From the NCBI GenBank assembly GCA_965662235.1, contig CBFIGY010000013.1:11867-75866 (forward strand): a DNA stretch of 64,000 nt, in the 5' to 3' direction. The notes beneath the pieces are model-generated. The model was given only the letters and a program-made list of their open reading frames with translations, searched no databases and was not told the DNA's origin. The position numbers were made by a program, and so were the translations under genes. This DNA comes from an uncultured bacterium. Lineage in GTDB: Bacteria; SAR324; NAC60-12. Below are positions 21,868-47,667 of the stretch, piece after piece (within the stretch, counting starts at the first letter, position 1; each line of letters opens with the position of its first letter).

Positions 21868-21871
21868 GCGT

Positions 21872-22795: not shown

Positions 22796-22807
22796 GGGGT
22801 CCTTAAG

Positions 22808-24301: not shown

Positions 24302-24355
24302 TTCTCCTACTCACTCAAGGAGCGGTTGTCGCCATCGTCACGCCTCGCACACCCC

Positions 24356-27372: not shown

Positions 27373-27378
27373 GTCTCT

Positions 27379-27999: not shown

Positions 28000-28020
28000 G
28001 TAAAAAAACCTTTCCGTATT

Positions 28021-29100: not shown

Positions 29101-29116
29101 GACCTTCCTTCAACAC

Positions 29117-31419: not shown

Positions 31420-31443
31420 GATGCGTCCAACAAAAAAACCGTG

Positions 31444-33984
31444 TCAGAGGGACTCCTGAGACGGCTGAGAAGGCTCAAACGAGCTCGGTAAGTCATCCAC
31501 CCACGCCTGCAACGCCTCCTGACTGGCCTGTGGGAGCTCAAGAAATCGGTTGACGTTACGGTCCTTGAGCATGTCCAAGGGGACGGTAAACTCGGTGATC
31601 AGACGATCATCGGTGTTGCGTTCCAGGGGGTTCAGCGTCTTGAGGTACCGGACCACTTCATGGTCCCCCATCAGGAACAGCTGAGGTAAGAACGTTTCAG
31701 GCTTCAGGCCAAAACGCTTCAAGGTGGCCGCCACCTGCGGACGGGAGGCACGACGGACCACATCGGCGTACTTGAGTCGGAAGTCGGGAGACTTGGAAGC
31801 AATCATCAGCAGGTCTCCCGGAACCGTCGAGCGCCACAGGGACACCTGGGGAAACACGGAACGGAGCGTGTAGATGAGGATCTTCAGGTTCCGGGGAGAC
31901 ATGTGGTAGGCCGGAAGCCACTGGGCCAGCATGCCGTTGGCCGACAGGCTCTGCTCCACCTGCTCGTACCATTCCAGCGAAAGCAGACTCGACTCTCCCT
32001 TGATCCAGGGATTCGAGGGCTGTGAGATGATCAGGTCAAACGGTTCCTTCTCACTGATGAGGAAGCTCCGGGCATCCCGAGCCACCACCGTGGAGCGGGC
32101 GTCATGAAGAACACCGTGGTTGTAGCGCTCAAAGAAGGAGGCTGCCCGGACCACAGCAGGCGAGATTTCCGCGGTGATCAGGGTTTCTGGATCGTGCAGC
32201 AACGCTGTGCCACTGGTGATGCCACTGCCCAGGCCCACCACAAACACGCGCTCCGGATTGGGGTGCAGGATCATCGGAAGCGAAGCCAACAGGGTCTGGG
32301 TGGGCATGTCGCCACTTCCCCCGGCACTCGCATCCACCTTGCCGTTGATCATCAGGCTCCGTTTGCCCTCGGCACTGTCCATGACCGCCACGGTTGCCAC
32401 TGGGCCCATCTCGTAGTAGACCATCTCAAACTTCCGCATCGCGGCTTCCCACACCAGCGACTGCTTCGCCTGCGACACATCCTCTCGCTCCAGGGCCATC
32501 AGGTTGTAGTTCCGGGAGGAGTCGTAGTACTGGTTGGCATAGAGGTAAACACCACTGCTCATCAACCGAGGCGACCACGGCTGATTCAGCAACAGGCTCA
32601 ACGCCGCCACAAAGGTCGTGGGAATCGCCCACCGGAGCCGAAGCCCCGGGGTCCACTCCGGGTGACTCATGAGGATCGCTAGGCCGATGGCAAAGCTGAT
32701 CACCGCTCCCAGCGTGACGGTGCCCTGCATGCCCATGCCGGGAACCAGGACCACTCCGGCGAGCGCGGCTCCGATCATGGCGCCCATTGTGTTGACGCCG
32801 AACACACGGCCCACGGCCTTGCTCGGAGAACGCGTGTTGGCCCCCAGTGCCGCACAGACCGTGGGGAACATCATTCCCATGGCAATCGTGGGGACCAGCA
32901 TCACCAGTGCGGCCAAAAGGAAACGCAGCACCTGCACGCCTCCCCAGGTGTCCAACAGCTCGCGGTGCAGCGACAGGTACAGGAACGGCAACCGCTCCAT
33001 GAGGATGTTTGCAACGAGCACCGATACGGCCAGCACCAGCTGCAGGAGCACATAGAGGGTCCGGGGCGAAAGACGTTGGTCCAGGTGCCGGTAGGCGTAG
33101 CTCCCAATGGCAATGCCCAGGAGAAACGTTGCCAAAATGGTGGTGAAGGCATACGACGTGGTTCCCAACAGCATGCTCAGGGTCCGGTTCCAGGCAACCT
33201 GGTACCCGAGCGCAACCGCGCCAGAGAGGCCGTAGCTCCAGAAGATGAGCCGAGCATTGAAGGAAAGACGGGGCAGCGGCTCCTCATGCAGCGGCAGGGT
33301 CGAATCGGCTCCCCCCTTGCGCTGGTGCAGCATCCAGAATCCCACCCCAATCAGGAGGTTGAGGGAGGCGGCAATCCAGGTGGTCCCAGAGTGTCCCAAA
33401 AACCGGAGCAGCAGGTACCCGGTCACCAGGGTTCCGGTGAGGGCCCCAAAGGTGTTGGCAGAGTACAGCCGCGCCGTGTTGACCGCCAGCAGACGCTCAG
33501 TCCGGGTCAGGTACCGGCTCATCAGCGGCAGCGTTCCTCCCATCAAGAACGTCGGTGGCGCCAGCAGCAGCACCCCAAAGAAGAAAGGCACCAGGGTCCG
33601 GGACTCGGCCAGGAGCGGAAACTGCTGATACAGCATCGCATGCAGCGCCTGGGCGCCCTCCACCAGAAAGGGGAAGAGGAGGGCGTAACCGCCAATCCCC
33701 CCTTCGAGGAAGGCATACGTTCGAGCCAGCTGAGTTTCCCCCCAGAGGTCCCCCTGCTTCCCAAACCACCAGCCCCCCCAAGCCAGCCCCCCCATGAAGC
33801 CCGTCAGGATCACCGTCACTGCGGTTGTGGACGACCCTAAAAAGTTGGTCAGGGTCCGGATCCAGATCACCTCATACGCGAGGCTGGCGGCCCCGGAACC
33901 AAAGAAGAACAGCGTCAGCCACTGCTCAAGCTTCAGGCCCAAGAGGGTCGCATTGAGGGGGGTGCGGGCGGGGGAGGGTGTCAT
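31444..33984 (-). CDS. fused polytopic membrane domain + spermidine synthase-like (aminopropyltransferase fold) protein
   Basis: About 12 predicted TM helices in the N-terminal 450 aa. C-terminal PABS-like fold: ERVFVVGLGSGITSGTAL...DLIISQPSNPWIKGESSLLSLEWYE. Confidence 0.75.
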   Translation of the reverse strand: MTPSPARTPLNATLLGLKLEQWLTLFFFGSGAASLAYEVIWIRTLTNFLGSSTTAVTVILTGFMGGLAWGGWWFGKQGDLWGETQLARTYAFLEGGIGGYALLFPFLVEGAQALHAMLYQQFPLLAESRTLVPFFFGVLLLAPPTFLMGGTLPLMSRYLTRTERLLAVNTARLYSANTFGALTGTLVTGYLLLRFLGHSGTTWIAASLNLLIGVGFWMLHQRKGGADSTLPLHEEPLPRLSFNARLIFWSYGLSGAVALGYQVAWNRTLSMLLGTTSYAFTTILATFLLGIAIGSYAYRHLDQRLSPRTLYVLLQLVLAVSVLVANILMERLPFLYLSLHRELLDTWGGVQVLRFLLAALVMLVPTIAMGMMFPTVCAALGANTRSPSKAVGRVFGVNTMGAMIGAALAGVVLVPGMGMQGTVTLGAVISFAIGLAILMSHPEWTPGLRLRWAIPTTFVAALSLLLNQPWSPRLMSSGVYLYANQYYDSSRNYNLMALEREDVSQAKQSLVWEAAMRKFEMVYYEMGPVATVAVMDSAEGKRSLMINGKVDASAGGSGDMPTQTLLASLPMILHPNPERVFVVGLGSGITSGTALLHDPETLITAEISPAVVRAASFFERYNHGVLHDARSTVVARDARSFLISEKEPFDLIISQPSNPWIKGESSLLSLEWYEQVEQSLSANGMLAQWLPAYHMSPRNLKILIYTLRSVFPQVSLWRSTVPGDLLMIASKSPDFRLKYADVVRRASRPQVAATLKRFGLKPETFLPQLFLMGDHEVVRYLKTLNPLERNTDDRLITEFTVPLDMLKDRNVNRFLELPQASQEALQAWVDDLPSSFEPSQPSQESL

Positions 33985-34071
33985 GAGAATGCTGTTTCGT
34001 CCGTTTCAGGGAAGGGGGAAAAGGAAAGAGGAGGGAAGCTCCCTCCCCCAGTCAAGGTGCTAGAGGAAGCC

Positions 34072-34581
34072 CTACTGATCTTCAGGCAGGGCGACTTCGC
34101 TGAGGTTCTGAGCCAGGCTCAGTTCATCCAGGGTGAAGATCTTTTCCAGATCCAGGATGGTGATGAAGCGCTCATCGCGCTTTCCCATCCCCCGGATGAA
34201 GTCGATGTGCAGCCGCGTTCCCAGCCGTGGAGGCGGGGTGATGTCCTCGGTGTCGAGGTCGATCACTTCCTGAACCGAGTCGGCCAGGGCTCCCAGCATG
34301 GTGCTTTCGCCGTCAATGGTGACTTCAATGACAATGACGCTGGTGTTGACCGTTTTTTCCACACGGCCGATGCCAAACTTCAGGCGCATGTCCACCACCG
34401 GCACCACGCTGCCCCGGAGGTTGATGATGCCCCGCATGAAGTCCGGCGTTTTCGGCACCTTGGTCACACTGTCAAACTGCAGAACCTCCCGGACGTTGCT
34501 GATGGAAAACGCATAGATTTCCTGGTCCAGCACAAAGGTCAGGTACTGATTGGAGATCGTCGACTGATCTTCTTCGCTCAT
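34072..34581 (-). CDS. cheW: chemotaxis coupling protein CheW
   Basis: YLTFVLDQEIYAFSISNVREVL...RGIINLRGSVVPVVDMRLKFG. Single CheW domain, 169 aa. Confidence 0.9.
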   Translation of the reverse strand: MSEEDQSTISNQYLTFVLDQEIYAFSISNVREVLQFDSVTKVPKTPDFMRGIINLRGSVVPVVDMRLKFGIGRVEKTVNTSVIVIEVTIDGESTMLGALADSVQEVIDLDTEDITPPPRLGTRLHIDFIRGMGKRDERFITILDLEKIFTLDELSLAQNLSEVALPEDQ

Positions 34582-34651
34582 ATCACTCCTTAATGTTCGT
34601 CAAACCGCAGAAACCGGGTGACCTCCCCCTCCGTAGAGGGGGAGGGGCGAC

Positions 34652-36784
34652 TCAGAACCGCTCGAAGTCCTCATCTGCAGAGTCGGCTCCGCCCATGTCG
34701 AGGTCCACTCCACCACTCTTCTGCGATCCGCTCTTCTTTGGAGGAGCAATCTGCTTCGGTTTGTCTCCACCCGACTTGGCGCCACCGCCCTGGCTCTTTG
34801 AGGACGGGTGATGCGGAAGGTGCGCAATCTTGGTGTGCGCTCCCTGTCGGTGGAGGCTATGCCGGGAGCTCTCCAACTTGAAGAACAGCATGGCCTGCTG
34901 CAGCTGCTCGGCCTGAGAGCTCATTTCCTCTGTAGTGGAGGCGAGTTCCTCAGAGGCCGCCGCGTTTTGCTGCACCACCTGGTCCAGCTGCTGGATGGCG
35001 GCATTGATCTGCTGGGATCCGGAGTTCTGCTCCCGGGACGCAGCACTGATTTCCTGGACCAGCTCGGCCGTCCGTTGGATATCAGGTACCAGTTGCTCCA
35101 GCATCTTTCCTGCCGTCTGTGCCACCTCAACGCTGCTGCTGGCCAGGGTGTTGATCTCAGCAGCAGCCGTTTGGCTCCGTTCCGCGAGCTTCCGGACCTC
35201 AGAGGCCACCACGGCAAAGCCCTTGCCATGCTCACCAGCCCGGGCAGCTTCAATGGCCGCGTTGAGGGCCAGCAGGTTGGTCTGCCGGGCGATCTCTTCA
35301 ATGATGGAGATCTTGTCAGCAATCTGGTTCATCGCTGTCACCGTGTTGACCACAGCGTCTCCTCCCTCACGGGCGTCATCCGCCGCCTTGCGGGCAATCT
35401 TCTCCGTCTGCACCGCGTTGTCGGTGTTCTGCTGAATGTTGGACCCCATTTCCTCCATGGAGGAGGAAACTTCCTCGACCGATGAAGCCTGTTCCGAAGC
35501 TCCCTGCGAGAGCTCCTGTGCCGTGGAGCTGACCTCCTGGGCTCCTGAAGCAACGTTGTCCGAGGCGTTCCGGACCGTCTCCACAATCTCACGGAGCCGC
35601 TCCGTCATCTGCTCAATGGACGCCAGGATGCCGGAGTTCCGTTTCCCTGCACGGCCCTGGTTGAAGTCCACATCCAGGTCTCCGCCAGCCACCTTGTCCA
35701 CCATGATCCCAATCTCAGCAGGTTCTCCTCCCACCTGTCGGACAATGGACAGAACCACCCAGAGGGCAATCCCCAGCCCCAGGATCAGGCTCACGACAAT
35801 GAGGATGAGCAGGTTGTTCCGGGTGTCTTCATAGAGGGCGTCACTGGAAAGCTTGATGGTCTCCAAGTCATCTTCGTTCTTCTGAACAATGTTGGCCATG
35901 ATGGCAATCGACTTGTCGTTCAGCTCCCGGCCTTGGCCAACTGAGAGGTTGAAGGCCTTGGTGTTTCCGTTCTCCCGGGTGATGGACTGCACCTCCTGAT
36001 TATGACTGAGGTAGTCCTGATAAAGGGGGCGGAATTCCCGGATGAGGGCCCGTCCCTGATTGGAGGAAACCTGCTCCAGCTCGTTGAGCCGCGACTCCAG
36101 TTCCTTCCGGATTTGCTCGGTCGCTTGGGCGTACTGATCCATGTCCTTGTCGGTGGTGGAGAGAATGACGTTCTTCTCCGCCCGTTGCAGCTCGACTAGG
36201 TTCTGGTTGATGCGAGCCCCCAGCTTGATGCGGTTGACGATCACCCGGAGGGTCTCCAGGTCCAGGGCTTCATCGGCCTGCCGGTCATTGAGGTCCACCA
36301 CCTGCGTCATCACCGCTGCCGCCTTGTCAAAGGCAGCGCGGGAGTCATTTTTGGAAAGCTCCTGTGCCCGGACGTTCGAGTTCAGACGTGAGAAGCTTCG
36401 GACCTCCTGATGGACCTTCATGTAGTCGTTGAAGGCGGTACCAAAGGAGTCCAGCTCTCGCTTTCCGGCTTCATCGGCCAGTTCCCGGAGTTCTCCGCGC
36501 CGCGAGTCCATATCCGCTCGGATGCCATCAATTTCCTTGGCATAGACATCCATGTCCTCCTGGGTCTTGGCCAGGATCATGTTCTTCTCCGCCCGGGAGA
36601 TGGCCACAATGCCCTGGTTGATCCGGGCCGCCAGTTTGATCTTGACGGCTGTGTTATCAGCCACAAAGTTCAGCTGATCATTGACCCCGCCGAGCCCATT
36701 GATTCCCATCCAGGAGCTGATCGCCATCAGGACCAGGATGATGATGAATCCACCGAAGAGCTGCGTCTTCATGTTGATTCGCAT
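34652..36784 (-). CDS. methyl-accepting chemotaxis protein (TM sensor, HAMP, signalling domain, long flexible C-terminal tether)
   Basis: [37 protein letters not shown] (canonical MCP tip). HAMP: [14 protein letters not shown]-terminal Lys/Gly/Ser-rich tether of about 50 aa ending DEDFERF. Confidence 0.9.
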
Positions 36785-36827: not shown

Positions 36828-37118
36828 CTAGCCTCTCACCCAATTCAAGTAACCAAAGCCCCCCTCCTCAAGTGCCTCACCCAAGGCACCAGGCAGGGGT
36901 CGCTCCAGTTGCAGGTCAATGCCCTTGCTGCGGGCGAGCAAGTAAGCGGCATGGATCAGCTGCACGCCCGCAACATCGGCCCGCTCCATGGAACCCCATG
37001 CGATCCGGATCTCCTCCGGATTCTGCTGAAAGGCATTCAGGAGTGTTTGTTGATGACGTGCCACTGTGTGGATGGTCAGGTCCCCCTGCAGCGAGACCGT
37101 CTGCGGATTGGAACTCAT
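36828..37118 (-). CDS. STAS-domain protein (anti-sigma-factor-antagonist-like), translationally coupled to the cheA upstream
   Basis: 96-aa SpoIIAA-like pattern [12 protein letters not shown]...[23 protein letters not shown]. Its start overlaps the stop of the cheA at 37115 by 4 nt. Confidence 0.65.
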
Positions 37119-39322
37119 GACGCCTCCTGATTTTTGGAGCCCCCCGCCTTTTGCGTCAGCGTGAGGACGTCCAAGATGAGGGCGATGCCACCATCGCCCA
37201 AAATCGTTGCCCCGGAGATGCCGACCACGTTCTTGTACAGCGATCCGAGGTTCTTGATCACCGTCTGGTGCTCTCCCACCACGTAGTCGACAACAAAGCC
37301 AATGGGCGCCCCTTCGTCAATGATCACCACCTGCTGAATCGCAGGAGGGGTTCCGGAGACATCAAACATCTCACGGATGTAGAGGTAGGGGACGAGGTCG
37401 TCCCGAACCTGCATGACCTGACCACGGGTGCTGTTTTCAATCTCTGTGGTCCGGAGCTCCACCACCTCGTCCACAGAGGAGAGGGGGATGATGAAGCTCT
37501 CGTCGCCGACCCGTACCAGCATGCCTTCAATGATGGCCAGGGTCAGGGGGAGACGGAACGACAGCTTGGTGCCGGCGCCCATTGTGCTGGAAAGGCTCAC
37601 GTGTCCGCCGAGGGACTCGATGTTGCGCTTGACGACGTCCATGCCCACCCCTCTTCCGGAGAGGCTGCTGACGGACTTGGCGGTTGAGAAGCCCGGCATG
37701 AAGATCAGCTCATGCAGCTCCTGCTCAGTCAGCTCAACATCCGGACGGATGAGGCCCCGTTCAATGGCTTTTTTCTTGATGACCTCGGCGTCCAGCCCCC
37801 CACCGTCATCACTCACCTCAATGACCACCTTGGCCCCCACGTGTCGGGCGCTGAGGTGAATGTGCCCCTGCCGAGGCTTACCCTTCGCTTGGCGGGCTTC
37901 TGGATCCTCAATGCCGTGTCCCATGCTGTTGCGGATGATGTGGACCAGCGGATCATTGAGCTGCTCAATCACGGACTTGTCCAGCTCCGTGTCTTCTCCC
38001 TCCGTCGTCAGCCGAACCTCCTTCCCCAGCTCCGAGGAGAGGTCTCGGATGAGGCGCTTGAAGCGGCCAAACAGGGTTCCGATGGGGAGCATGCGGATGC
38101 CCATGGTCGTGTCCCGCAGATCAGCGGTGAGGCGCTCCACCTCTTCCGAGAGCAGCAGCAGCTCCGAATCGCTGCGGTGCTTGACGGTCTGGCTCAGACG
38201 GGCCTGCACGGTCACCAATTCTCCCACCAGGTCCACCAGCGTGTTGAGCTTCCAGAAGGGCACCCGGATGGTGGAGGTGTTGGCCTGCTCCCGGGTCCGC
38301 TCCTGCTCCCGTCGGTGCTCCTGCTCCCGGTTGCGGAAAAGCTGCTGCTCGTTGAGGGCCGAGACAATGTGTCCTTCATCCACCCCTTGCTCCAGCAGGA
38401 TCTCACCGATGCGGCGCTCATCGTCTTCCTCAATCTCCCGGATCTTCAGATCACAGTCGTCTTCCACAAACATGAAGACGTCCCGGACGGCATTGATGCC
38501 CCGGTCGGTCCGGAGGAGGATCTCCCAGTACACCCGGCACTCCTCGGGGTTGAACTGATCAAGGGGGAGGATCTTTTCGGTTTGGGCCACCACGTTGCCT
38601 TCGCCCAGCTCCAGCAGCTCCCGTAGGAGCAAAAGCGGGTTGGTGCCCCCCTTGAAGAGCTGAGGCTCCGGCTTGAAGCTGATGCGGTAGGTCTGGTTGG
38701 CCTTTTCTTCATCTGGACTTTCGGCGTCCAGGTGTGGCTGGGGCGCTTGCGGTAGGTCTTCAAAGAACCCGTAGCCCAGGTCTTCTTCGGCAGAGGCCGG
38801 TTCTGGTTCTGGGGCGGCCACCGGTTCTGGTGCAGCGGCAGATTCAGAGGCTTCCACAGGAGCCGGAGTCGCCACCGGCTCGGCCACAGGAGCTGGCTTC
38901 GGAGCCGCAGAGGCCGGGACGTCATCGTCAACGCCCTGAGCGAGAAAGTCCCGAAGGCGCTGAATCAAGCCACTCAGAGCCCCCGAGTCACTTTCCTGTC
39001 CCCCTTCCACTTCCTCCAGCATGCGGTTGAGGCGGTCATGAACCTCCAGCGTCAAGCCGATCAGGTTGTGCGTCACCCGGCGGGTGCCGACCCGGACCTG
39101 GTCGAAGATGGTTTCCATCTCATGAGTGAGCGAGGCGATCTTATCGAACCCGAACATGGAGCCCGACCCCTTGAGGGTGTGCATGACGCGGAAGGTCCGG
39201 TTGACCAGTTCCGGATTGTCCGGATCCTCCTCCAACTCCAGGAGCAGCTGCTCCAGCTCGTCGTTCAGCTCACGTGCTTCCTCGAGGAAGACGAGCCGTC
39301 CTCGTTCAAATGCCGAAGCCAT
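37115..39322 (-). CDS. cheA: chemotaxis histidine kinase CheA (P1 HPt, Pro/Ala linker, P3, P4 HATPase, P5 CheW)
   Basis: HPt: FRVMHTLKGSGSMFGF. HATPase: LVHIIRNSMGHGIE...SGRGVGMDVV. C-terminal CheW-like domain. The TAATG stop/start overlaps cheY. Confidence 0.9.
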   Translation of the reverse strand: MASAFERGRLVFLEEARELNDELEQLLLELEEDPDNPELVNRTFRVMHTLKGSGSMFGFDKIASLTHEMETIFDQVRVGTRRVTHNLIGLTLEVHDRLNRMLEEVEGGQESDSGALSGLIQRLRDFLAQGVDDDVPASAAPKPAPVAEPVATPAPVEASESAAAPEPVAAPEPEPASAEEDLGYGFFEDLPQAPQPHLDAESPDEEKANQTYRISFKPEPQLFKGGTNPLLLLRELLELGEGNVVAQTEKILPLDQFNPEECRVYWEILLRTDRGINAVRDVFMFVEDDCDLKIREIEEDDERRIGEILLEQGVDEGHIVSALNEQQLFRNREQEHRREQERTREQANTSTIRVPFWKLNTLVDLVGELVTVQARLSQTVKHRSDSELLLLSEEVERLTADLRDTTMGIRMLPIGTLFGRFKRLIRDLSSELGKEVRLTTEGEDTELDKSVIEQLNDPLVHIIRNSMGHGIEDPEARQAKGKPRQGHIHLSARHVGAKVVIEVSDDGGGLDAEVIKKKAIERGLIRPDVELTEQELHELIFMPGFSTAKSVSSLSGRGVGMDVVKRNIESLGGHVSLSSTMGAGTKLSFRLPLTLAIIEGMLVRVGDESFIIPLSSVDEVVELRTTEIENSTRGQVMQVRDDLVPYLYIREMFDVSGTPPAIQQVVIIDEGAPIGFVVDYVVGEHQTVIKNLGSLYKNVVGISGATILGDGGIALILDVLTLTQKAGGSKNQEAS

Positions 39323-39684
39323 TACCCAAGCACTTTCTTGGTCACCGCGATCAGACGCTGGGGATCAAAGGGTTTGATAATCCATCCGGTGGCGCCGACT
39401 TCCTTGGCCTCTTGCTTCTTGGTGGCTTCAGACTCCGTTGTCAGGACAATCACCGGCACAAACTTGTAGTCAGGGTGCTGCCGCACAGCCTGAATGACTC
39501 CAATGCCGTTGAGGTTGGGCATGTGCAGGTCCGTAATCACCATGTCAATCTGCCCACTCAGCCGGTTGACGGCATCCTGCCCGTCCTCTGCGGCCTCCAC
39601 GGTATAGCCGGCCTCTTCGAGAGTCAGGCGGACCATCTGCCGGACGCTGTTGGAGTCGTCAGCGATGAGGATACGTTTGCTCAT
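39322..39684 (-). CDS. cheY: chemotaxis response regulator CheY
   Basis: MSKRILIADDSNSVR...MVITDLHMPNLNG...VIVLTTES...IIKPF. Confidence 0.9.
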   Translation of the reverse strand: MSKRILIADDSNSVRQMVRLTLEEAGYTVEAAEDGQDAVNRLSGQIDMVITDLHMPNLNGIGVIQAVRQHPDYKFVPVIVLTTESEATKKQEAKEVGATGWIIKPFDPQRLIAVTKKVLG

Positions 39685-39737: not shown

Positions 39738-40619
39738 TCAGCTGTGCCCCGACGGTGGAGTGAGGGCATGAATGAAAGAAGTGGAATCCAGCAGCACCAC
39801 CGCGGGCCTGTTGTCCTTCCGGTTGAAAAAAAGCCCCGGGGTGGGGTTCTGAAACAAGGCCGCCTGCGCCTCCGGAAGCGGTTCCCCGTCTTCCAACGCC
39901 AGCCACTCCAGTCCCAACGGGTGCCCCAGCACCTCCACCTCCTGACCCTCCTGCTGCAGGAGCAGGAGGCTAGGGGGATCGTGAGGACGGGTGGACGTCA
40001 CCCCAAGCACGTCGTGCAGCACAGGGGCCGAGGCGTCTGCAGGTGCAGCGGCCACACGACGCACACAGGCGGCTTCTAGGGCAACCGGAGGTTCTGTGGC
40101 CAGCCGCAGGGCCAGCACCTCCTGTTGCGGAGGACGGGCGTCTGCGTAGTGCGGCACCGTGCGTTGAATTTCCCGAGACTCGGTCTCAAGGGTGAAGAGT
40201 TGTTCCACATTGAGCAGCGGCACCGATTGTTCCCGGTAGCTCAGCATCCGTTGCACCAGCGCGCCCAGCTGCGGGGGAGGGGAGCCCGCCGGTTGCTCGT
40301 CGGGCTCTCCCACGCCAATGACCTGTTCCACCAGCAGCCCCCAGATGAGCCGGTCCTGCTCCACCACCACGACATTCCCATCCAGGTGCTCCTGGGTCAG
40401 TCCCAGCTTGCGCGAGGCCATCACAACCGGAAGCGCCTCGCCCCGGAGGTTCATGACCCCCAGCAGCTCCGGCGGCGCGTTGGGAACCGGTGTCCACGGA
40501 TTGAGGCGCTGCACCTCCAGCACCGATCGACGGGGCAGGGCCATCAGCTTGCCGGCGATGCGGAAGAAGAGCATCTTGCGGGCAGTGGTCTTCTCTTCCA
40601 GCAGGGTTGCACCCATCAC
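39738..40619 (-). CDS. tandem CheW-like domain protein (second domain divergent)
   Basis: N-terminal domain: MLFFRIAGKLMALPRRSVLEV...LLGVMNLRGEALPVV. C-terminal half repeats the pattern: PVLHDVLGVTSTR...VVLLDSTSF. Confidence 0.65.
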   Translation of the reverse strand: MMGATLLEEKTTARKMLFFRIAGKLMALPRRSVLEVQRLNPWTPVPNAPPELLGVMNLRGEALPVVMASRKLGLTQEHLDGNVVVVEQDRLIWGLLVEQVIGVGEPDEQPAGSPPPQLGALVQRMLSYREQSVPLLNVEQLFTLETESREIQRTVPHYADARPPQQEVLALRLATEPPVALEAACVRRVAAAPADASAPVLHDVLGVTSTRPHDPPSLLLLQQEGQEVEVLGHPLGLEWLALEDGEPLPEAQAALFQNPTPGLFFNRKDNRPAVVLLDSTSFIHALTPPSGHS

Positions 40620-42088
40620 GACACCTGATCGCGAAGTTGTGTGAGCTGCTGCTCCGTGCTCGACAGGCGTTCCGACTCAGAGCGCAGCGACTGCTGGACC
40701 TCGCTGAGGCGGTTGCGGTCCTGCCGGACGGACTCCAGGACGGAGTGGGCATCGGCAAGCACCAGTTCCAGGGTCTCGCGGCAGTAGTTGAGGTTTTCCA
40801 ACTGGTGCTGCTCCCGGTCAAGGAGGTGCTCCAGTTCCAAGCTCTGCCCCCGCAGTTCCAGACGGAAGTGCCGAAGCTGCTCCTGAACCTGACCAGCCAC
40901 CGACGACGCATTGCCCGCCAGCTGACGAGCCTCCTGGATGAGGTTGAGGACCGCCTGACGCTCCTCGTCATCCAACGTGTCGGCGCTCCCGCTATGAGCA
41001 GAAAGCAGTTCCGTCTGCACACACGCCTGTAGCCACTCCTCCAGCTCCCCCTCCATGCGCCACGCGTGCTGAATGAGCGCGCCCAGGTCATGCAACAGGG
41101 TCCGGAGGTGCTCATGAGACGCCTGAGCCGAGGTGGCCATGTGGCTGAGGACCACCAAGCTCTGGGTGAGGCGTTTGATCTCATCATCAAGGTGCTTGCG
41201 GGTCTGTTCTGTGACCGCTGACATCGACTGAAACTCCTGCTCCAGCTCCAGCCCCAGTCCACGGGCCCGGAGGATCAGGTCCCGTTGCCGTCCCAATTCC
41301 TGCTGCAGGAGGTGGGTGGTTTCGGTTTCCAGCTGCTCCGCGTTTTGACTTTCTGGCGCCACCAGTGTGAGCCGTTGTGCTTCCCGGAAACGGTCGAGGG
41401 GACGCAGGGCACAGGCTTCTGCCGCCAGTTCCGTGAAGTGCAGCACCTCCTGCTCCTGCCCCCGGAGCACCCGAGAGGCCCAGGACACTCCGTCTCGGAG
41501 CAACAGGACATCGGTCTTGATGCGGATCAGGCCTTCCGGGTGGTAGAGCGAGGCATGGTCCTCCACCTGACGCAACGTCGTGAAGCGCTCCCGCCAGCCG
41601 TTGAGCTGCGAGGCTCCCTGAGTGACCCACTCGGAAAGGGAAAGCAGCATCTGCTCACTCACAGCAGAGAGGGTGGAGGTGACCTCGGCAATGTGCCCTA
41701 GGTTCCGGACACGCTGCTTGCGAGACGTTTCCAGAGCGGCATTCATGGCCAGAAAGCGAACCTCCCCGTCCAGCCGGGACACGGAGGAGTGAAGGTGCTC
41801 CTGCACCTCCTGCCGGATGTCATCCAACGCCTGGGCGCTTTCTGCCACCTTGGTGTGCAGGGCACTGGAGACCTCCATGGCGGAGTGCAGGGCAGAGAGG
41901 TTCTGGGCCAGCTCCTGAGCAAGCCCCCGGAGGCTGTGGAAGCGGGCACCGGTCTCCAGCAGCTCCTGGCTGCTCTGCCGGACCTGCTCCCGAATCGCTT
42001 GGGAGGAGGCTTTGAACTCACGGAGGTCCGCAGTCAGGGTCGTAAGAGACGTCCCCAGCTGCTCGGCCTGCTGGAGGGACTGAGGCAT
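40616..42088 (-). CDS. coiled-coil protein with a degenerate MCP-signalling-tip-like segment (cytoplasmic chemoreceptor-like?)
   Basis: RFLAMNAALETSRKQRVRNLGHIAEVTS, compared with the MCP tip [27 protein letters not shown]. The rest is heptad/Q-L-E rich with no TM segment. Confidence 0.45.
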   Translation of the reverse strand: MPQSLQQAEQLGTSLTTLTADLREFKASSQAIREQVRQSSQELLETGARFHSLRGLAQELAQNLSALHSAMEVSSALHTKVAESAQALDDIRQEVQEHLHSSVSRLDGEVRFLAMNAALETSRKQRVRNLGHIAEVTSTLSAVSEQMLLSLSEWVTQGASQLNGWRERFTTLRQVEDHASLYHPEGLIRIKTDVLLLRDGVSWASRVLRGQEQEVLHFTELAAEACALRPLDRFREAQRLTLVAPESQNAEQLETETTHLLQQELGRQRDLILRARGLGLELEQEFQSMSAVTEQTRKHLDDEIKRLTQSLVVLSHMATSAQASHEHLRTLLHDLGALIQHAWRMEGELEEWLQACVQTELLSAHSGSADTLDDEERQAVLNLIQEARQLAGNASSVAGQVQEQLRHFRLELRGQSLELEHLLDREQHQLENLNYCRETLELVLADAHSVLESVRQDRNRLSEVQQSLRSESERLSSTEQQLTQLRDQVS

Positions 42089-42454: not shown

Positions 42455-44614
42455 TTAAAGTAACAGGCTCAGGTCTTCACCCGTGAGGACCAGTAAGGGG
42501 GCTCCCGTGCCCATAACGATGCACCCTTCAAAGCCTCCCTCTGCCAGGAAGGGGTGCAGGAAGGGACGGATGACGCCCTGTGTGAACTTGAGGATCCGGT
42601 CAGCATGGAAGGCCACCTGCTGCCGACGGGAATCTTCGAGCACCAGGATCACCCCCGTCTGAGGCACCGGAGGCGCCGATCCCAGACCCAATCGGGCCTG
42701 CAGGTCCAGGTAGTGGCAGGTGATGCCCCGGTGCTTGAACACCCCCTGCTCTGGAACCGTGGGGTGCAGCGACAGGTCCACAATCTCCCGGATGACGTCG
42801 TAGCGGATGGCCACGGTTCGGCCGGCCAGTTCCACCACCAGCACCTTGCGGGACTGCAGTCCCAGCCGGAGGGGGCAGAACAGGGTGATCTCAGATCCCT
42901 TGCCCAGCTCAGAGGTAATGCGCACGTCACCACCATGGTGCCGGATGGTGCTGGCCACCACATCCATGCCAACTCCCCGTCCTGACACGTTGGTTACCTT
43001 CTCCGCCATGGAGAATCCAGGCGCCATCAGCAGCTCAAACGCCTCCTCATCGGTGTACTCCGTGTTGGGCTGCGCCAGTCCACGCTCCAGGGCCTTGCTC
43101 AGCACCCGCTGAACGTCAATGCCGTTTCCGTCATCAGAGACCGTGAGGCGCAGCATCTCCGGCTCCAGCCGAGCTGCCACCCGCAGGTTCCCCACTTCTG
43201 ACTTGCCCCGCTGCTTACGGACGTCCGGGGTTTCAATGCCATGGTCAAGGGAGTTCCGGATCAGGTGCACAAACGGGTCACCCAGCAGATCAATGACCGA
43301 GCGGTCCACCTCCAGGTGCTCCCCGCGGAGCTCCAGGGAAACCCGCTTCCCGAGGTCCCGCTCCAGCTGCCGAAGCATCCGGGGCAGGCGGTCAAACAGT
43401 TCACTCAGGCGAGAGGCCCGCAGCTGCTGCAACGACTCCTGCAGGCCACCAAACCGCTGCTGCACCCGCTGCACCGCGCCTCGCATCTCCATCGACATCC
43501 GAGGGTCCAGGCTCTGACGCGTCTCCTGTTCCAAGGCGTCCAGGTGGTTCAACTCCGTCACCACCTCTTCAGCATGGCGGGTGAACTCATTGAGGTCGTC
43601 CATGCTGATGCGCATCATCTCCCGACGCGTGGCCTGTGCCTCGTTGGTGGCCGCAGGAGCGCTCGGTGCTGCCGGGGTCCGAGCCGAGCCAATCCCGAGC
43701 ATCTCCAGAGCAAACTCGCTGGCGTCATGAGACCGGACGTTGCACTTGCGTTCCAGGCCCTCCACCCAAAACTGTTTCCAGAACTGCTCCACCATGTCCG
43801 GAACCAGACGGGCCAAGGCGCTGAGCGAATCCCAGTCCAGCACCGGCTCCGGAGCATCCGGGTAGAGCAGCTTGTCCATCTGGAGCACCAGCGGCTCGTA
43901 GCGTTCAATGCCATCCGGAGGCAGCCCGGCTCCTGCAGCAATCAGCTCCTCCAGTCCAATCAGCACCTCCCGGACTGCGGGGGTGATGTCCTCGCCCTCC
44001 GACGTAAGCACCGACTCCAGCAGCACGCTCCGGACGACCACATCCACCTCCAGGGACTGCTTCTTGGTGAAGTACGTTTCCAGCGTGTCTAGGGCATCCA
44101 GCACCTCCTGAGGCGGAGGCGCCGCGGCGCTGCGGGCCCGTCCCGACTCGGCCTGTTCCACCAGGTTCCGGAGGCGGTCGGCCAGGGGCTCCACCTTCTC
44201 CTCCGAAGGCTCTTCCTTGTTGAGGTTCTGGAGGAAGCGCTCAAAGCGGTCATCCAGCTTCATCTCCTGCTGCCGCATGCGCTCCAGCGCATCCTGAAGC
44301 AGGTCCACGCCCTCCAGCACCCGAGACTGTTCACTGTCCCGTAGCGCCCGGCTCTGGCCCTTGAGCTGCTGCAGGTAGCTTTCAAAGACGTGCGCAAAGG
44401 ACTGCAGGGCCATGAGGTCGAAGAAACCAGCGGTTCCCTTGACGGTGTGGACCCAGCGGAAGATCGCCGCCAGGGTCTCAATCGGCTGTTCCTCGAGTCG
44501 CTCCAGATCCTCCTGAATCAGCTCCAGACCATTGAGGGATTCCTCCACAAAGGCCTGAATGATCTCCGGATCAAAGAAGGATGCGCTGATGTCGGCAGAG
44601 ACGGTTTCGGTCAT
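42455..44614 (-). CDS. cheA: second chemotaxis histidine kinase CheA (start at MTETVSADIS; the upstream part of the ORF is Gly/Pro-rich and non-coding-looking)
   Basis: HPt: FRWVHTVKGTAGFFDL. HATPase: FVHLIRNSLDHGIE...SGRGVGMDVVASTIRHHGG. C-terminal CheW domain. Its start overlaps the stop of the upstream gene by 4 nt. Confidence 0.85.
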   Translation of the reverse strand: MTETVSADISASFFDPEIIQAFVEESLNGLELIQEDLERLEEQPIETLAAIFRWVHTVKGTAGFFDLMALQSFAHVFESYLQQLKGQSRALRDSEQSRVLEGVDLLQDALERMRQQEMKLDDRFERFLQNLNKEEPSEEKVEPLADRLRNLVEQAESGRARSAAAPPPQEVLDALDTLETYFTKKQSLEVDVVVRSVLLESVLTSEGEDITPAVREVLIGLEELIAAGAGLPPDGIERYEPLVLQMDKLLYPDAPEPVLDWDSLSALARLVPDMVEQFWKQFWVEGLERKCNVRSHDASEFALEMLGIGSARTPAAPSAPAATNEAQATRREMMRISMDDLNEFTRHAEEVVTELNHLDALEQETRQSLDPRMSMEMRGAVQRVQQRFGGLQESLQQLRASRLSELFDRLPRMLRQLERDLGKRVSLELRGEHLEVDRSVIDLLGDPFVHLIRNSLDHGIETPDVRKQRGKSEVGNLRVAARLEPEMLRLTVSDDGNGIDVQRVLSKALERGLAQPNTEYTDEEAFELLMAPGFSMAEKVTNVSGRGVGMDVVASTIRHHGGDVRITSELGKGSEITLFCPLRLGLQSRKVLVVELAGRTVAIRYDVIREIVDLSLHPTVPEQGVFKHRGITCHYLDLQARLGLGSAPPVPQTGVILVLEDSRRQQVAFHADRILKFTQGVIRPFLHPFLAEGGFEGCIVMGTGAPLLVLTGEDLSLLL

Positions 44615-45045
44615 GTGCTCCCCTTTTGCACCTCCCGAGCTAGTTGGAGCCAGTAGTTCCGGCGTCGGAGCATGGTCTGGATGGCCTGCCCAAAGGGCTC
44701 CCAGTCCAGTGGAAAGAAAAACAGGTAGTCCGCGCCCTGTCGGTTGCTCCGGGCCACCGCCTCCAGGTCCCGCTCCCGGGCCAGGAAGATGAGGCTGGTG
44801 GAAGGCGCCAGCTGCCGCGCCCGCTTCTTCCACTCGAAGCCATCGAAGCTGCTGCTGTTGATCTCAATGATCAGCAGGTGGCAGGGGTTGCGGCTGAGGA
44901 AGCTCATGAAGCCCTTGGGCGTGTGGTGGTAGATCACCTCAAAGTCCTGCTTGAAGAAGGACTTCAGCTCCTCATTGGTCTCGGTTTCGGCCAGGGTGGC
45001 CACCACAAACGAGGGTTGAGGGGCGTCACTCATGCGTCCTCCCAT
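44611..45045 (-). CDS. pseudo-receiver (degenerate REC-fold) protein
   Basis: Beta-alpha pattern of a receiver (FVVATLAE ... HLLIIEINSS ... SLIFLA ... DYLFFFPLDWEPF), but the acidic pocket, phospho-Asp and Lys are replaced. Confidence 0.5.
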   Translation of the reverse strand: MGGRMSDAPQPSFVVATLAETETNEELKSFFKQDFEVIYHHTPKGFMSFLSRNPCHLLIIEINSSSFDGFEWKKRARQLAPSTSLIFLARERDLEAVARSNRQGADYLFFFPLDWEPFGQAIQTMLRRRNYWLQLAREVQKGST

Positions 45046-45911
45046 CGCTTGGTCATGGTGATGCGGTTGCCGCTGTCGCTCCAGTCCACCGAACTCATGA
45101 TGCCCTTGATGAGCAGCAGCCCCCGCCCATGCGTCTGGGTCGGACTGGCGTTGACGTCACCGCGGTAGGCAGAGGGGTCAAATCCGGGGCCTTCATCTTC
45201 CAAGGAGACCCGAAGCATCTCAGCATCCATGTCCACCTGAATCCGGACCTGCCGGTCCTTGTAGTCAGGATCCTCTGAGCGGGTTCCCACCATGGCTTCA
45301 AACCGTTCCCACGACTGGTCCTTGAGGGAGGACGGGAGTTCCAGGTTCCCGTGGATGATGGAGTTCGTGAGCGACTCCTGCAGGCAGAGGTCAATGAGGT
45401 GCACCGGGACCTGGTTGCTTTCACAGAGGGGACGGTAGAGGGACCGGAGCGTCTGCACCGTGGCGGCAATCAGGTCCGGACGACTGGGCACCAGCAGGCG
45501 CAGCTTGAGGTTGCTGACGGCCAACAGCTCCGTCTGGCGGCTGCTTTCCTGCTGCCGCACCTGCAGGCGCTCCAACGCTGACTGGAGGACATGGAAGGCA
45601 AAGGGCTTGAGGATCAGGTCCACGGCGCCGAGCTTCAGGGCTTCCACAGAAGTCTGCACGTCACCGTGCCCGGTGATGAGCAGCGTCGGAGTGTTCATGC
45701 GCGACCGGACCATGCGTCGCAGCAGCTCCATGCCGTCCATGACGGGCATGCGGATGTCTGAAAGCACGGCGTCAAAAGGAGGCCCAGCTTTCAGCAGCGC
45801 CAGGGCTTCTTCGCCATTGCCTGCAGACGCCACTTCATAATCGGCATCCTCCAGCAACTCTACCAATGAGTCCCGCCATCCGGGCTCATCGTCCACCACC
45901 AGCAGTCTCAT
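45030..45911 (-). CDS. response-regulator receiver fused to an RsbW/RsbT-like GHKL serine kinase (anti-sigma-factor-type HATPase_c_2)
   Basis: REC: MRLLVVDDEPGWR...VLSDIRMPVMDG...LLITGHGD...LILKPF. C-terminus: LCLQESLTNSIIHGNLE...DEGPGFDP...GRGLLLIKGIMSSVDW. Confidence 0.7.
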   Translation of the reverse strand: MRLLVVDDEPGWRDSLVELLEDADYEVASAGNGEEALALLKAGPPFDAVLSDIRMPVMDGMELLRRMVRSRMNTPTLLITGHGDVQTSVEALKLGAVDLILKPFAFHVLQSALERLQVRQQESSRQTELLAVSNLKLRLLVPSRPDLIAATVQTLRSLYRPLCESNQVPVHLIDLCLQESLTNSIIHGNLELPSSLKDQSWERFEAMVGTRSEDPDYKDRQVRIQVDMDAEMLRVSLEDEGPGFDPSAYRGDVNASPTQTHGRGLLLIKGIMSSVDWSDSGNRITMTKRWEDA

Positions 45912-47110
45912 GAGACCCTCTCCTCCTGAGTCGCATGCACCTCAATGCCCATCAAGGTTGCATCGTCATCAAAGCGGTCCTTCCCCGCAAAGTTCAGCAC
46001 CGACTGCATGATCTTTTGAGTCATGTTTGAAAGGTTCTCCTCCCGGAGGCTAGAGAGGGTCTTGCGCAAACGGGGCTCCCCAAACAGCTCGGAGCTGCGG
46101 CTCTTGCCCCAGGCCGGATTGGTCTCCAGCAGCGCATCCGTGTAGATCAGCACCCGGTCCCCGGGACTCAGCTGCACCTTTCCCTCGCCATACTGCACGA
46201 GGTCACTGGGCAGCACCCCCAGCACCACTCCATCGGTGGAGAGGCTGGTGATCTCCTCGGTCCCCTGACGGATCAGGTACGCCGGAGGATGCCCCGCACA
46301 GGTGTAGGTCAATTCCTGCGACTGCTCATCAAAGATCATGTAAAAGAGGCTCGCGAAGCGTCCCGGAGGCATGTAGTCATTGAGGGTGTCGTTGATCCGG
46401 GAAATCGCTTCCTGTGTGGAACTAAGCCCGCCTCCCACCTGCCGGAAGGTGAGGCGCAGCATCATGGCAATCATCGAAGCCGACAAGCCGTGCCCGGTGA
46501 CATCCGCCACCACCATGCCAATGAGGTGATCGTTGAGGCGCAGAACGTCATAGAAGTCTCCACCCACCTCATCCATGGGAATGAACTCCGTCTGAATCTG
46601 CAGGCAGGTAGAAACATCTAGGCTATGTGGAAGCAGAAGCTCCTGAGCCACCCGGGCCTGTTCCAGGTCGTAGCGACTCTGCTTCTGCAACGAAATCAGG
46701 TGCTCATTGAGCATCTCCACCATCTCTAGGTGCCCGTTCATCCGCCGGTTTTCCTGCAGCAGGGAGTGGTGCTCCAAGAAGAGCGCAATCAGTTCATCAG
46801 CAAACTGCTCCGGATGCTCCTGCAGCAGCGAGGTCTGCAACAGCCCCGGCTGACTTCCCTCCGAGAGGGCACCAATCGCAACCGCCAGTGTTTCCGGGAA
46901 CTTTTGCTGAAAACGCTGCAGCTCCTCCGCGTTGGTTCCAATGATCAGCGTCGGAGAAGCCCCTCCTGGACGAAGTGCCCCCAGGGCCTGTTCCACCTCC
47001 TGATAGAGTTCAACCGTGAAGCACCGGCCCAGGTGACGCTCCAGCGTCGCCAGTTCGGGAGTGGAGCCAAGGAGGAGGATCAGGTTGGGTTTGATGGTCT
47101 GTGGACTCAT
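45908..47110 (-). CDS. PP2C-family serine phosphatase (SpoIIE/RsbU-like) with degenerate N-terminal receiver-like domain
   Basis: GGDFYDVLRLNDHLIGMVVADVTGHGLSASMIAMM...CAGHPPAYLIR...GDRVLIYTDALLE. The N-terminal 120 aa are REC-like (LILLLGSTPE...TLIIGTNA) without the conserved Asp. Confidence 0.8.
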   Translation of the reverse strand: MSPQTIKPNLILLLGSTPELATLERHLGRCFTVELYQEVEQALGALRPGGASPTLIIGTNAEELQRFQQKFPETLAVAIGALSEGSQPGLLQTSLLQEHPEQFADELIALFLEHHSLLQENRRMNGHLEMVEMLNEHLISLQKQSRYDLEQARVAQELLLPHSLDVSTCLQIQTEFIPMDEVGGDFYDVLRLNDHLIGMVVADVTGHGLSASMIAMMLRLTFRQVGGGLSSTQEAISRINDTLNDYMPPGRFASLFYMIFDEQSQELTYTCAGHPPAYLIRQGTEEITSLSTDGVVLGVLPSDLVQYGEGKVQLSPGDRVLIYTDALLETNPAWGKSRSSELFGEPRLRKTLSSLREENLSNMTQKIMQSVLNFAGKDRFDDDATLMGIEVHATQEERVS

Positions 47111-47113
47111 GAG

Positions 47114-47458
47114 TCAGCTGGCAATGCGGTCGAGGGCAACGTCAAGGGAGGGGGTGACCTGGAGGAAGCGGTCGATCTGCGTCAACGCGATCGTCTGCCG
47201 GACCACTTCATTGGGGCCACTGAGGAAGAAGGGAACCCGCTGGTTGAGGGAGAGTTTTGCCCCATACAGGATGATGCCAATGCCCGAGGAGTCGAGAAAG
47301 TCCAGGCTTTCCAGGTCCAGGACCAGGCCCGAAGGGGTCTCCTTCAGCAACGACTCCAGCTGCTGCTTGAGCTTGGACACATTGGAACTCTCCAAGGTTC
47401 CGGACAGGGTGACCACCTGGACGGATCCGTTCTTTGTAACATCAATCTGTAGGAACAC
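47114..47458 (-). CDS. STAS-domain anti-sigma-factor antagonist (first gene of the operon, directly upstream of the PP2C phosphatase)
   Basis: VQVVTLSGTLESSNVSKLKQQL...LVLDLESLDFLDSSGIGIILYGAKL (SpoIIAA-like with the phosphorylatable Ser region DSSGIG). Confidence 0.8.
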   Translation of the reverse strand: MFLQIDVTKNGSVQVVTLSGTLESSNVSKLKQQLESLLKETPSGLVLDLESLDFLDSSGIGIILYGAKLSLNQRVPFFLSGPNEVVRQTIALTQIDRFLQVTPSLDVALDRIAS

Positions 47459-47667
47459 GGCTGCTTCTTCTTTAATGATCGAAAAAGATGCAATTTATTT
47501 TTATTTTTTGATTTTTTCCCTGAATTTCAGGAAAGAGCGCTATCATACGTATCCAATTTATTATCTCAAGATGATATTTCTCAGGAAGGAGACGGAAGCG
47601 GACGGGTCAGGACCCTTGTGGTGGGGAAAGCATTGGGGGCTTTTTCAGGGGAGGCTGGCAACGGTGG
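47459..47667. promoter_or_regulatory. AT-rich intergenic promoter region for the STAS-PP2C-kinase-che string; contains perfect palindrome CCTGAA-T-TTCAGG at 47519-47531
   Basis: About 209 bp, much lower in GC than the surrounding sequence (ttttattttttgattttttccctgaatttcaggaaagag). It is the only sizeable gap in the 30-kb minus-strand gene string. Confidence 0.35.

Follow-up and report, generated by a model that had tools for sequence, protein, structure and literature searches.

Introduction

A partner switch is built around an RsbW-type kinase that doubles as an anti-sigma factor, a PP2C phosphatase and a phosphorylatable STAS protein, and in the Bacillus examples (RsbU/RsbV/RsbW and SpoIIE/SpoIIAA/SpoIIAB) the operon co-encodes a sigma factor. 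In Vibrio fischeri, SypE, whose domains are arranged as kinase, receiver (REC) and PP2C, and the STAS-type effector SypA form a partner switch with a non-sigma output. Partner switches linked to chemosensory (che) genes are already present in the literature for Shewanella, Pseudomonas and Vibrio, as is a kinase of the LvrC type in Leptospira. Here we analyze a stretch of 64,000 nucleotides from an uncultured bacterium of the SAR324 lineage (contig CBFIGY010000013.1; hereafter “the window”, whose positions are used for all coordinates), in which the genes of such a set, namely a STAS protein (STAS1), a PP2C phosphatase and a receiver-kinase, together with a pseudo-receiver gene, head a long string of che genes.

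The che1 locus of Shewanella oneidensis contains crsR, encoding a REC-PP2C-anti-sigma kinase, and crsA, encoding a STAS protein (PMC9855816). Both products control RpoS, which is sequestered by CrsR; the ten genes listed for the locus do not include rpoS (PMC9855816, PMC6482189). The most ancient F7 chemosensory clusters comprise genes for an anti-sigma antagonist, cheY, cheA, two cheW, a receptor, cheR, cheD, cheB, a second receptor, another antagonist and a serine phosphatase, and the function of these early stages has been described as still unclear (PMC7184735, Ortega et al. 2020). In the HptB-HsbR-HsbA pathway of Pseudomonas aeruginosa, HsbA is phosphorylated on Ser56 and the outputs (FlgM/FliA, HsbD, RpoS) are encoded elsewhere; HsbR interacts with RpoS, though it was long described without a sigma target (PMC6482189). 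Furthermore, SiaABCD of the same species is a partner switch with a non-sigma output, SiaC binding SiaD (as cited in PMC9239204).

Other relevant precedents concern single components. PDB entry 9QIH corresponds to Leptospira LvrC, a receiver joined to a Bergerat-fold RsbW/SpoIIAB-like domain and described as an anti-sigma factor under Rec control; it belongs to the LvrA/LvrB pathway, receives its phosphate from the histidine kinase LvrB, which is Rec-controlled, and has been proposed to sequester a still unknown sigma factor, STAS being mentioned 0 times in that paper (PMC13269768). CheS, described in Sinorhizobium meliloti and Agrobacterium, is a small STAS-only protein of a che operon that binds CheA and alters CheY binding (PMC12654446). 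Finally, a survey of Campylobacterota found STAS genes within che gene orders, and proposes links from a REC-PP2C-kinase to a STAS protein and from this to the receptor (PMC9239204).

The genes at the head of the string

An earlier note on this DNA, made from its letters alone, proposed that a partner-switching module of four genes heads a chemosensory operon. The four-gene observation is correct and clearly non-random: the limits of the open reading frames (ORFs) coincide with those proposed, and the four domain assignments (STAS with a DSSGIG motif, PP2C with a degenerate receiver, receiver fused to an RsbW-type kinase, and pseudo-receiver) were recovered by Pfam and NCBIfam models and by residue comparison, with moderate support in the case of the degenerate receiver.

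47458-44611, minus strand: the four genes as a whole
47114-47458, minus strand: STAS1, 114 residues, stand-alone protein of the anti-sigma-antagonist type (Pfam STAS 1.5e-18)
45908-47110, minus strand: SpoIIE/PP2C serine phosphatase, 400 residues (SpoIIE 8.6e-44 over residues 194-391)
45030-45911, minus strand: receiver-kinase, 293 residues, a receiver fused to an RsbW/SpoIIAB-type GHKL domain (Response_reg 2.2e-29, HATPase_c_2 2.3e-16)
44611-45033, minus strand: stand-alone pseudo-receiver, 140 residues (Response_reg 4.2e-4, under the Pfam cutoff); the listed ORF, of 144 residues, begins 4 codons earlier
42088-42441, minus strand: STAS2, 117 residues, a second STAS protein of the phosphorylatable type (Pfam STAS 2.4e-19; above the TIGR00377 cutoff)
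36828-37118, minus strand: STAS3, 96 residues, a STAS_2 protein (2e-12) with DVAGVQ and thus without a phospho-Ser

The kinase domain of the third gene is RsbW-like, as had been proposed. A canonical histidine kinase was rejected on domain scores, HATPase_c_2 reaching 60.4 bits vs 18.8 bits for canonical HATPase_c, which is under its cutoff, and Pfam finding no HisKA/DHp domain in the protein. A linker of about 30 residues separates this domain from the receiver, which is canonical (D7/D8, D52, T80, K102), and the residues of the RsbW domain are present (E179, N183, H187, D239xGxG, G262-R-G); D52, K102, E179, N183, H187-G-N, D239xGxG and G262-R-G are invariant in 40 homologues. By sequence, the protein is a full-length homologue of LvrC (phmmer against PDB 9QIH, E 2.4e-28, query 1-289 on chain residues 4-293), with the N, G1 and G2 motifs kept. 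Its nearest named homologues, at 35-38% identity, belong to Leptospiraceae, KSB3/Vecturithrix and SAR324 metagenome-assembled genomes (MAGs).

The phosphatase consists of a receiver-like N-terminus (approximately residues 1-100), a coiled linker and the C-terminal catalytic domain, whose metal-binding motifs are present (GGDFYD 183-188, DVTGHG 203-208, YTD 323-325, DDD 381-383). The N-terminal 128 residues gave no Pfam match, and by sequence this region is restricted to the three closest relatives. It can nonetheless be placed in register with the receivers of REC-PP2C homologues (LILLLGSTPE with ILVVDDE, TLIIG with the acceptor strand, LAVAIG with ILLTG), an alignment that shows it to have neither DD pocket nor acceptor Asp nor Lys. 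The AlphaFold2 model (predicted local distance difference test score, pLDDT, 78.7) has a beta-alpha fold lacking helix 4 and ending in a long helix; its best PDB matches in Foldseek are receiver domains, at template modeling (TM) scores of 0.5-0.64, one of which is the REC domain of RssB, a P. aeruginosa protein that is also of the REC-PP2C type. Profile-profile comparison with receivers was weak (probability 6.7%), in the correct register. The assignment as a degenerate receiver is moderately supported, because of this weak score and because the AlphaFold2 input alignment included true receivers, which may have biased the model to a receiver fold. The ratio of non-synonymous to synonymous substitution rates (dN/dS) is more relaxed in the N-terminus (0.30) than in the C-terminus (0.09). 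As the receiver-like domain is apparently not phosphorylatable, it is probably a docking or regulatory domain.

Three STAS proteins are encoded in the string. STAS1 scores 72.9 bits against the NCBIfam model TIGR00377, “anti-sigma factor antagonist” (cutoff 53.45), and its DSSGIG (residues 56-61) aligns with DSSGLG of SpoIIAA, placing Ser57, which is kept in orthologues, on SpoIIAA Ser58. In STAS2 it is Ser56, within TSSGIG, that aligns to SpoIIAA Ser58, and this Ser is kept in five orthologues. Both are under purifying selection (dN/dS 0.14 for STAS1 and 0.075 for STAS2). The earlier note had counted two further STAS genes downstream of STAS1, and both exist, but STAS3 is of another kind: Val occupies the Ser position in three of three orthologues, so STAS3 cannot be a phospho-switch, and it resembles a CheA partner of the CheS type. 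A 4-bp overlap joins its start to the cheA2 stop, and by analogy with CheS it is probably an accessory or partner of CheA2, for which we consider it a candidate. It gave no PDB match and no plasmid tblastn match, and the likeness to CheS is therefore one of domain, size and position only. A transporter-type origin (SLC26/SulP) of the STAS genes was rejected, in agreement with the earlier note: the ORFs are stand-alone, of 96-117 residues, with their own starts, and are kept so in relatives; they match anti-sigma-antagonist models (STAS1 and STAS2 above the TIGR00377 cutoff), and no Sulfate_transp domain lies nearby.

In sequence terms, the residues needed for catalysis and phospho-acceptance in a partner-switching cycle are all present. 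The four head genes show purifying selection in comparison with a 90% relative (L006, below), with dN/dS of 0.08-0.18, and identical copies of them were found in three metagenome assemblies.

Layout of the string and its upstream boundary

The string comprises 24 co-directional genes, from 47458 to 19881 on the minus strand, and the gaps between all 24 genes range from overlaps up to +87 bp. STAS1, PP2C, receiver-kinase and pseudo-receiver are followed by CheA1, STAS2, a 490-residue coiled-coil protein, a long CheW, CheY, CheA2, STAS3 and a 4HB methyl-accepting chemotaxis protein (MCP), then by CheW, an MFS/spermidine-synthase-like fusion, CheR, REC-REC-HATPase, CheB and CheD, and the string ends with a 658-residue protein, a cyclase-PilZ protein, a REC-REC-HisKA-HATPase hybrid kinase, a molybdopterin-oxidoreductase-domain protein, a histidine kinase and a receiver. 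Overlaps of 4 bp join PP2C to kinase, kinase to pseudo-receiver and pseudo-receiver to cheA1, an arrangement by which the head genes are, as read from the sequence, translationally coupled to one another and to cheA1.

A 209-bp AT-rich gap lies 5' of STAS1 and holds a promoter candidate. Directly upstream of STAS1 and on the same strand, a single-domain receiver and a dCache/HK_sensor histidine kinase occupy 47668-49963 (minus strand); the pair is kept in the 90% relative L006 and absent from the 59% relative L008.

47542..47569, minus strand: sigma-70-like promoter candidate TTGAGA-16-TATGAT (10/12 consensus matches; a consensus match only)
47668-49518, minus strand: dCache histidine kinase, upstream neighbour, not Rec-controlled

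Conservation of the che linkage

The genomic context was compared among relatives identified through the receiver-kinase or the pseudo-receiver.

L006 (kinase 90% identical): gene order unchanged, including the upstream receiver and dCache kinase
L008 (kinase 59% identical): STAS1-PP2C-kinase-pseudo-receiver-STAS2-CheY-CheA-STAS3-MCP-CheW-CheR-CheB-CheD
L090 (pseudo-receiver 43% identical): pseudo-receiver-CheA1-type-STAS
L092 (pseudo-receiver 37% identical): one che cluster with REC-PP2C, CheZ, pseudo-receiver, CheA1-type, STAS, second CheA, CheY, REC-HATPase_c_2 and FliG
L093 (pseudo-receiver 40% identical): kinase-pseudo-receiver-CheA1-type

The retrieved part of L008, which ends just after CheD, lacks the block of CheA1, coiled-coil protein and long CheW as well as the upstream kinase, and so the che linkage outlasts both. 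Judging from gene order, the che association is kept in the relatives at 90% and at 59% identity, as well as in three more lineages reached via the pseudo-receiver.

Besides these, 80 more distant kinase homologues (28-38% identity, from many phyla) were surveyed, most of which stand alone or adjoin hybrid histidine kinases. One of them, from the SAR324 MAG PL24a_bin.25 (JANQHV010000129, L028:9920-12124), is a single 734-residue REC-HATPase_c_2-REC-SpoIIE protein, that is, a fusion of window genes 3 and 2, flanked by STAS, CheB, CheR, two MCPs, CheW and CheA. Its domain order differs from that of HsbR and CrsR (REC-PP2C-kinase) and from that of SypE (kinase-REC-PP2C). This fusion argues strongly that kinase and PP2C act together and with the Che system.

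The pseudo-receiver, CheA1 and STAS2

42455..44614, minus strand: CheA1, a variant CheA of 719 residues (Pfam; NCBIfam CheA over residues 322-705)
40616..42088, minus strand: 490-residue coiled-coil protein of the CheA1 block (no family above cutoff; kept in L006; dN/dS 0.08)
39738..40619, minus strand: CheW-domain protein of the CheA1 block, 293 residues, with a C-terminal extension (CheW 9.5e-27)

The pseudo-receiver carries Glu57 at the acceptor position, lacks the DD pocket and the conserved Lys, and ends in a helix with the motif RRxYW. Approximately five orthologues were found among 1.84 billion representative proteins, likewise with Glu at the acceptor position and with the DD pocket and Lys lost. 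Its more distant relatives are true receivers that keep all these residues, acceptor Asp included, and also possess the RRxYW helix, from which it follows that the pseudo-receiver descends from a real receiver family. The gene is always situated in che clusters, adjoining a CheA1-type kinase and/or a STAS2-type protein.

CheA1 combines an Hpt domain with a middle region that is conserved and lineage-specific, a dimerisation region that is divergent, HATPase and a CheW-like domain, and the H-box, N, G1 and G2 motifs are present; its identity to the CheA1-type kinase of L092 is 41% along the whole protein, and, as said, it has no counterpart in L008. A longer GTG-start ORF of 792 residues (42455-44833, minus strand), which overlaps the pseudo-receiver gene by 220 nt, was rejected and the 719-residue version kept, since relatives start this CheA at the ATGA overlap with the pseudo-receiver (44614). 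An iterative search with the CheA model drifted to generic histidine kinases and its result was discarded.

The pseudo-receiver is grouped with CheA1-type and STAS2-type genes, since it recurs with them also in loci from which STAS1, PP2C and kinase are missing or far off: gene order indicates that these three (pseudo-receiver, CheA1 and STAS2) are a conserved sub-unit, separate from the trio of STAS1, PP2C and kinase, and that both sets recur within chemosensory clusters with two CheA proteins. In evolutionary terms, the proposal that the four head genes constitute one module has to be abandoned. The triad could be a previously undescribed sub-unit of the array, in which a CheA paralogue would be gated by a Ser-phosphorylated STAS and a Glu-locked pseudo-CheY, while the LvrC-like kinase and PP2C would couple His-Asp and Ser/Thr signalling reciprocally (CheA acting on the kinase receiver, the kinase on STAS2, and STAS2 regulating CheA1); this is a speculative extension, to which we give little credence.

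A further che module recurs beside the pseudo-receiver clusters of four lineages (L008:1-7963, L090:11699-17209, L092:223-7839 and L094:1634-9143). It consists of an HSP70/MreB-like ATPase, a cytoplasmic MCP-like protein of about 640 residues, a multi-CheW protein of 510-650 residues, CheB and a CheW-REC protein (CheV), the HSP70/MreB-like gene being missing from the retrieved part of L008.

Proposed mechanism and alternative explanations

The reading that we favour, and regard as somewhat probable, is that the RsbW-type kinase/anti-sigma factor, the PP2C phosphatase and the phosphorylatable STAS proteins are a partner-switching set wired into a chemosensory array. The direction of signal flow, the phosphodonor and the target are what we infer around the genes described above. 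The receptor-CheW-CheA array (CheA2, and CheA1 where present) would phosphorylate Asp52 of the receiver-kinase, alongside CheY and CheB. This phosphorylation would switch the RsbW domain between phosphorylating STAS1 on Ser57 and STAS2 on Ser56, or holding a partner. PP2C would reset the STAS proteins, and the unphosphorylated STAS would bind the RsbW domain and displace that partner, so that the array would control a transcription programme in addition to any output mediated by CheY. The conserved synteny and the SAR324 kinase-phosphatase fusion beside STAS and che genes support the functional coupling to Che.

By analogy with CrsR and HsbR, which act on RpoS, and with the proposal made for LvrC, the most likely partner is a sigma factor whose gene lies at another place in the genome, and a sigma output is the leading candidate. 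The earlier note was right that no sigma factor lies nearby, in that Pfam found no sigma-70, sigma-54 or other sigma-factor domain in the ORFs scanned across the window, but this carries no weight as evidence for a non-sigma output. Such an absence is uninformative, because rpoS is not listed in the che1 locus either, the interaction of HsbR with RpoS was found late, and the partner of LvrC is still unknown. The same note had suggested that the array acts through Ser/Thr phosphorylation of STAS proteins; synteny and the fusion support the coupling to Che, whereas the idea itself was already known from F7 clusters (PMC7184735) and che1 (PMC9855816).

Several points weigh against this reading. 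Among the 80 distant kinase homologues, a STAS gene lies within 3 kb in 11, a PP2C gene in 6 and both in 3, and just 2 (the SAR324 fusion being one of them) have at least two che gene families within 10 kb; with 2/80 and 3/80, the che coupling is a lineage-specific arrangement that does not characterise the family as such. That either CheA passes phosphate to the receiver-kinase is a step that we infer, and another phosphodonor is possible, given that the dCache kinase and receiver are directly upstream and that LvrC-like proteins usually stand beside (hybrid) histidine kinases. The search for sigma factors covered the window sequence only, and a STAS protein of a che cluster can act on CheA itself, as CheS does (PMC12654446).

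This last point leads to the alternative that survives best, although we hold it to be unlikely, in which the STAS proteins would act inward: STAS2 and STAS3 would bind CheA1 and CheA2, and kinase and PP2C would set the state of STAS1 and STAS2, tuning CheA activity or the choice of regulator, so that Ser/Thr phosphorylation would control gain or routing and not provide an output. The 4-bp overlap of STAS3 with the cheA2 stop and its lack of a phospho-Ser fit this scheme, as does the position of STAS2, always after a CheA1-type gene or the pseudo-receiver; a precedent is CheS, which consists of STAS alone, binds CheA and alters the binding of CheY (PMC12654446), and a genome survey has proposed that a REC-PP2C-kinase may act on a chemoreceptor via a STAS target (PMC9239204). 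However, STAS1 and STAS2 score above the curated cutoff as classical anti-sigma antagonists, the kinase domain is of the anti-sigma type, with its closest characterised relatives sequestering sigma factors, and L008 keeps STAS2 without CheA1.

A two-component input is a more doubtful alternative. Here the dCache histidine kinase (47668-49518) and/or the many hybrid kinases of the window would drive the module, and the che genes would be only co-transcribed, their adjacency reflecting co-regulation or a shared regulon. The kinase/receiver pair is indeed directly upstream, on the same strand, and kept in L006; most LvrC-like homologues lie beside (hybrid) histidine kinases, and LvrB phosphorylates LvrC. 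Nonetheless, the 59% relative lacks this pair and its che linkage persists, the 209-bp AT-rich gap with its promoter-like site separates the pair from STAS1, the kinase gene is apparently translationally coupled to cheA1 through the pseudo-receiver, and the SAR324 fusion protein is likewise placed in a che cluster.

A non-sigma output, in which STAS1 or STAS2 would bind an enzyme or regulator according to phosphorylation state, with class III cyclase-PilZ proteins from the operon and its surroundings as candidates, is similarly improbable: two Guanylate_cyc-PilZ proteins are encoded in the neighbourhood, the SAR324 locus L004, with a 38% kinase homologue, has a cyclase gene followed by a weak-PilZ gene, and precedents exist in HsbA, which binds FlgM and the cyclase HsbD (PMC6482189), and in SiaC-SiaD (as cited in PMC9239204), but the cyclase genes do not adjoin the module, and none is found in the retrieved parts of L008 (which ends just after CheD), L090 and L092.

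Other genes of the string and of the window

39322..39684, minus strand: CheY-type single-domain response regulator (Response_reg 1.5e-27; acceptor motifs intact)
37115..39322, minus strand: CheA2, complete (Hpt, dimerisation domain, HATPase, CheW-like; Pfam)
27379..36784, minus strand: rest of the core che set, comprising 4HB MCP, CheW, MFS/spermidine-synthase-like fusion, CheR, REC-REC-HATPase, CheB and CheD (gaps -4 to +87 bp)
19881..27554, minus strand: distal genes, encoding the 658-residue protein, class III cyclase-PilZ, REC-REC-HisKA-HATPase, molybdopterin-oxidoreductase-domain protein, histidine kinase and receiver

The MCP is a transmembrane 4HB receptor whose C-terminal arm, of approximately 119-126 residues, is 34H/36H-sized. 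Between cheW and cheR, the gene at 31444-33984 (minus strand) encodes an 846-residue MFS/spermidine-synthase-like membrane fusion (NCBIfam NF037959, 117 bits), absent at the corresponding position in L008. After cheD, at 25578-27554 (minus strand), comes a conserved protein of approximately 600-658 residues with only a weak CheZ-like match (E 0.005); its listed start, which gives a 176-nt overlap with cheD, is probably placed too far upstream. Class III nucleotidyl cyclase-PilZ fusions are encoded twice, at 24356-25594 (minus strand) and 16214-17938 (plus strand), and one of the two also has a receiver at its N-terminus and a TPR repeat; the pairing of a cAMP/cGMP-type (cyclic AMP/cyclic GMP) cyclase with PilZ, which binds c-di-GMP (cyclic di-GMP), is unusual. 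Elsewhere in the window, the product of 54280-55704 (plus strand) matches the Gig2-like family very strongly (PF07350, E 1.4e-131), here in a bacterial genome, and 5097-7319 (plus strand) encodes a PrkA-type AAA serine protein kinase, a Ser-kinase gene unrelated to the operon. No tRNA match and no Rfam match was obtained in the window.

Significance and comparison with known systems

The output of ancestral non-motility chemosensory systems (F7 stage 1/2 and Shewanella Che1) is still described as unclear. The locus supports the view that chemosensory arrays can feed partner switches, and extends this pattern beyond Gammaproteobacteria. What is new is the split architecture, formed by an LvrC-type kinase and a PP2C with an apparently dead receiver, the triad of pseudo-receiver, CheA1 and STAS2, and the fact that such a locus occurs outside Gammaproteobacteria. 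With the set naturally split, its kinase, its phosphatase and its three STAS proteins can each be studied on their own; an LvrC-type receiver-anti-sigma protein is here in the company of its likely STAS and PP2C partners, none being reported for Leptospira in the LvrC paper (PMC13269768); and the conserved triad adds a small new testable piece. Its value is incremental, as a known theme is refined and none is opened.

With respect to LvrC, the window kinase shares the two-domain architecture, a canonical REC and a Bergerat-fold domain, with homology over the full length. It differs in that STAS and PP2C genes flank its own gene, which is also coupled to cheA, and in its neighbours: the donor of LvrC is LvrB, whereas here cheA1 lies downstream and a dCache histidine kinase that is not Rec-controlled lies upstream. 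The three biochemical roles and the signature motifs are those of RsbU/RsbV/RsbW and SpoIIE/SpoIIAA/SpoIIAB; unlike the Bacillus systems, no sigma factor is co-encoded in the window, the kinase has a receiver, and the input would be chemosensory or two-component. STAS3 is similar to CheS in being STAS-only, beside cheA and of comparable size and position, and itself lacks a phospho-Ser, while CheS systems are without an associated kinase or phosphatase. SypE-SypA and SiaABCD, in turn, are not linked to che genes.

The comparison with HptB-HsbR-HsbA drawn by the earlier note is apt (PMC6482189): in both cases a receiver-controlled PP2C and an RsbW-type kinase act, or here would act, on a STAS protein, with a His-Asp phosphorelay as the input (a presumed one in the window). 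HsbR, however, is a single three-domain protein fed by an Hpt protein and hybrid kinases and not by a CheA array, whereas in the window kinase and phosphatase are split into separate proteins; the Pseudomonas system is also without a pseudo-receiver and has one STAS protein only. All the gene types of the F7 stage 1/2 clusters of Vibrio, Pseudomonas and Shewanella are present in the window, and stage 1 also has more than one STAS; this likeness is by gene content, as the window receptor is a 4HB transmembrane MCP and not Aer2-like (PAS-HAMP, 36H).

Finally, as in Shewanella Che1 with CrsR/CrsA, a partner-switch kinase, phosphatase and STAS are found inside a che cluster with CheY, CheA, CheW, MCP, CheR, CheD and CheB. 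CrsR is one REC-PP2C-kinase polypeptide, whereas kinase (293 residues) and PP2C (400 residues) are here separate proteins whose genes overlap by 4 bp, each with its own receiver-type domain, only one of the two being predicted to be functional. Beyond what is known from Che1, the window cluster also encodes a pseudo-receiver, a further CheA and a STAS that is not phosphorylatable, and, unlike the hosts of Che1 and F7 clusters, it comes from an uncultured non-gammaproteobacterial lineage.

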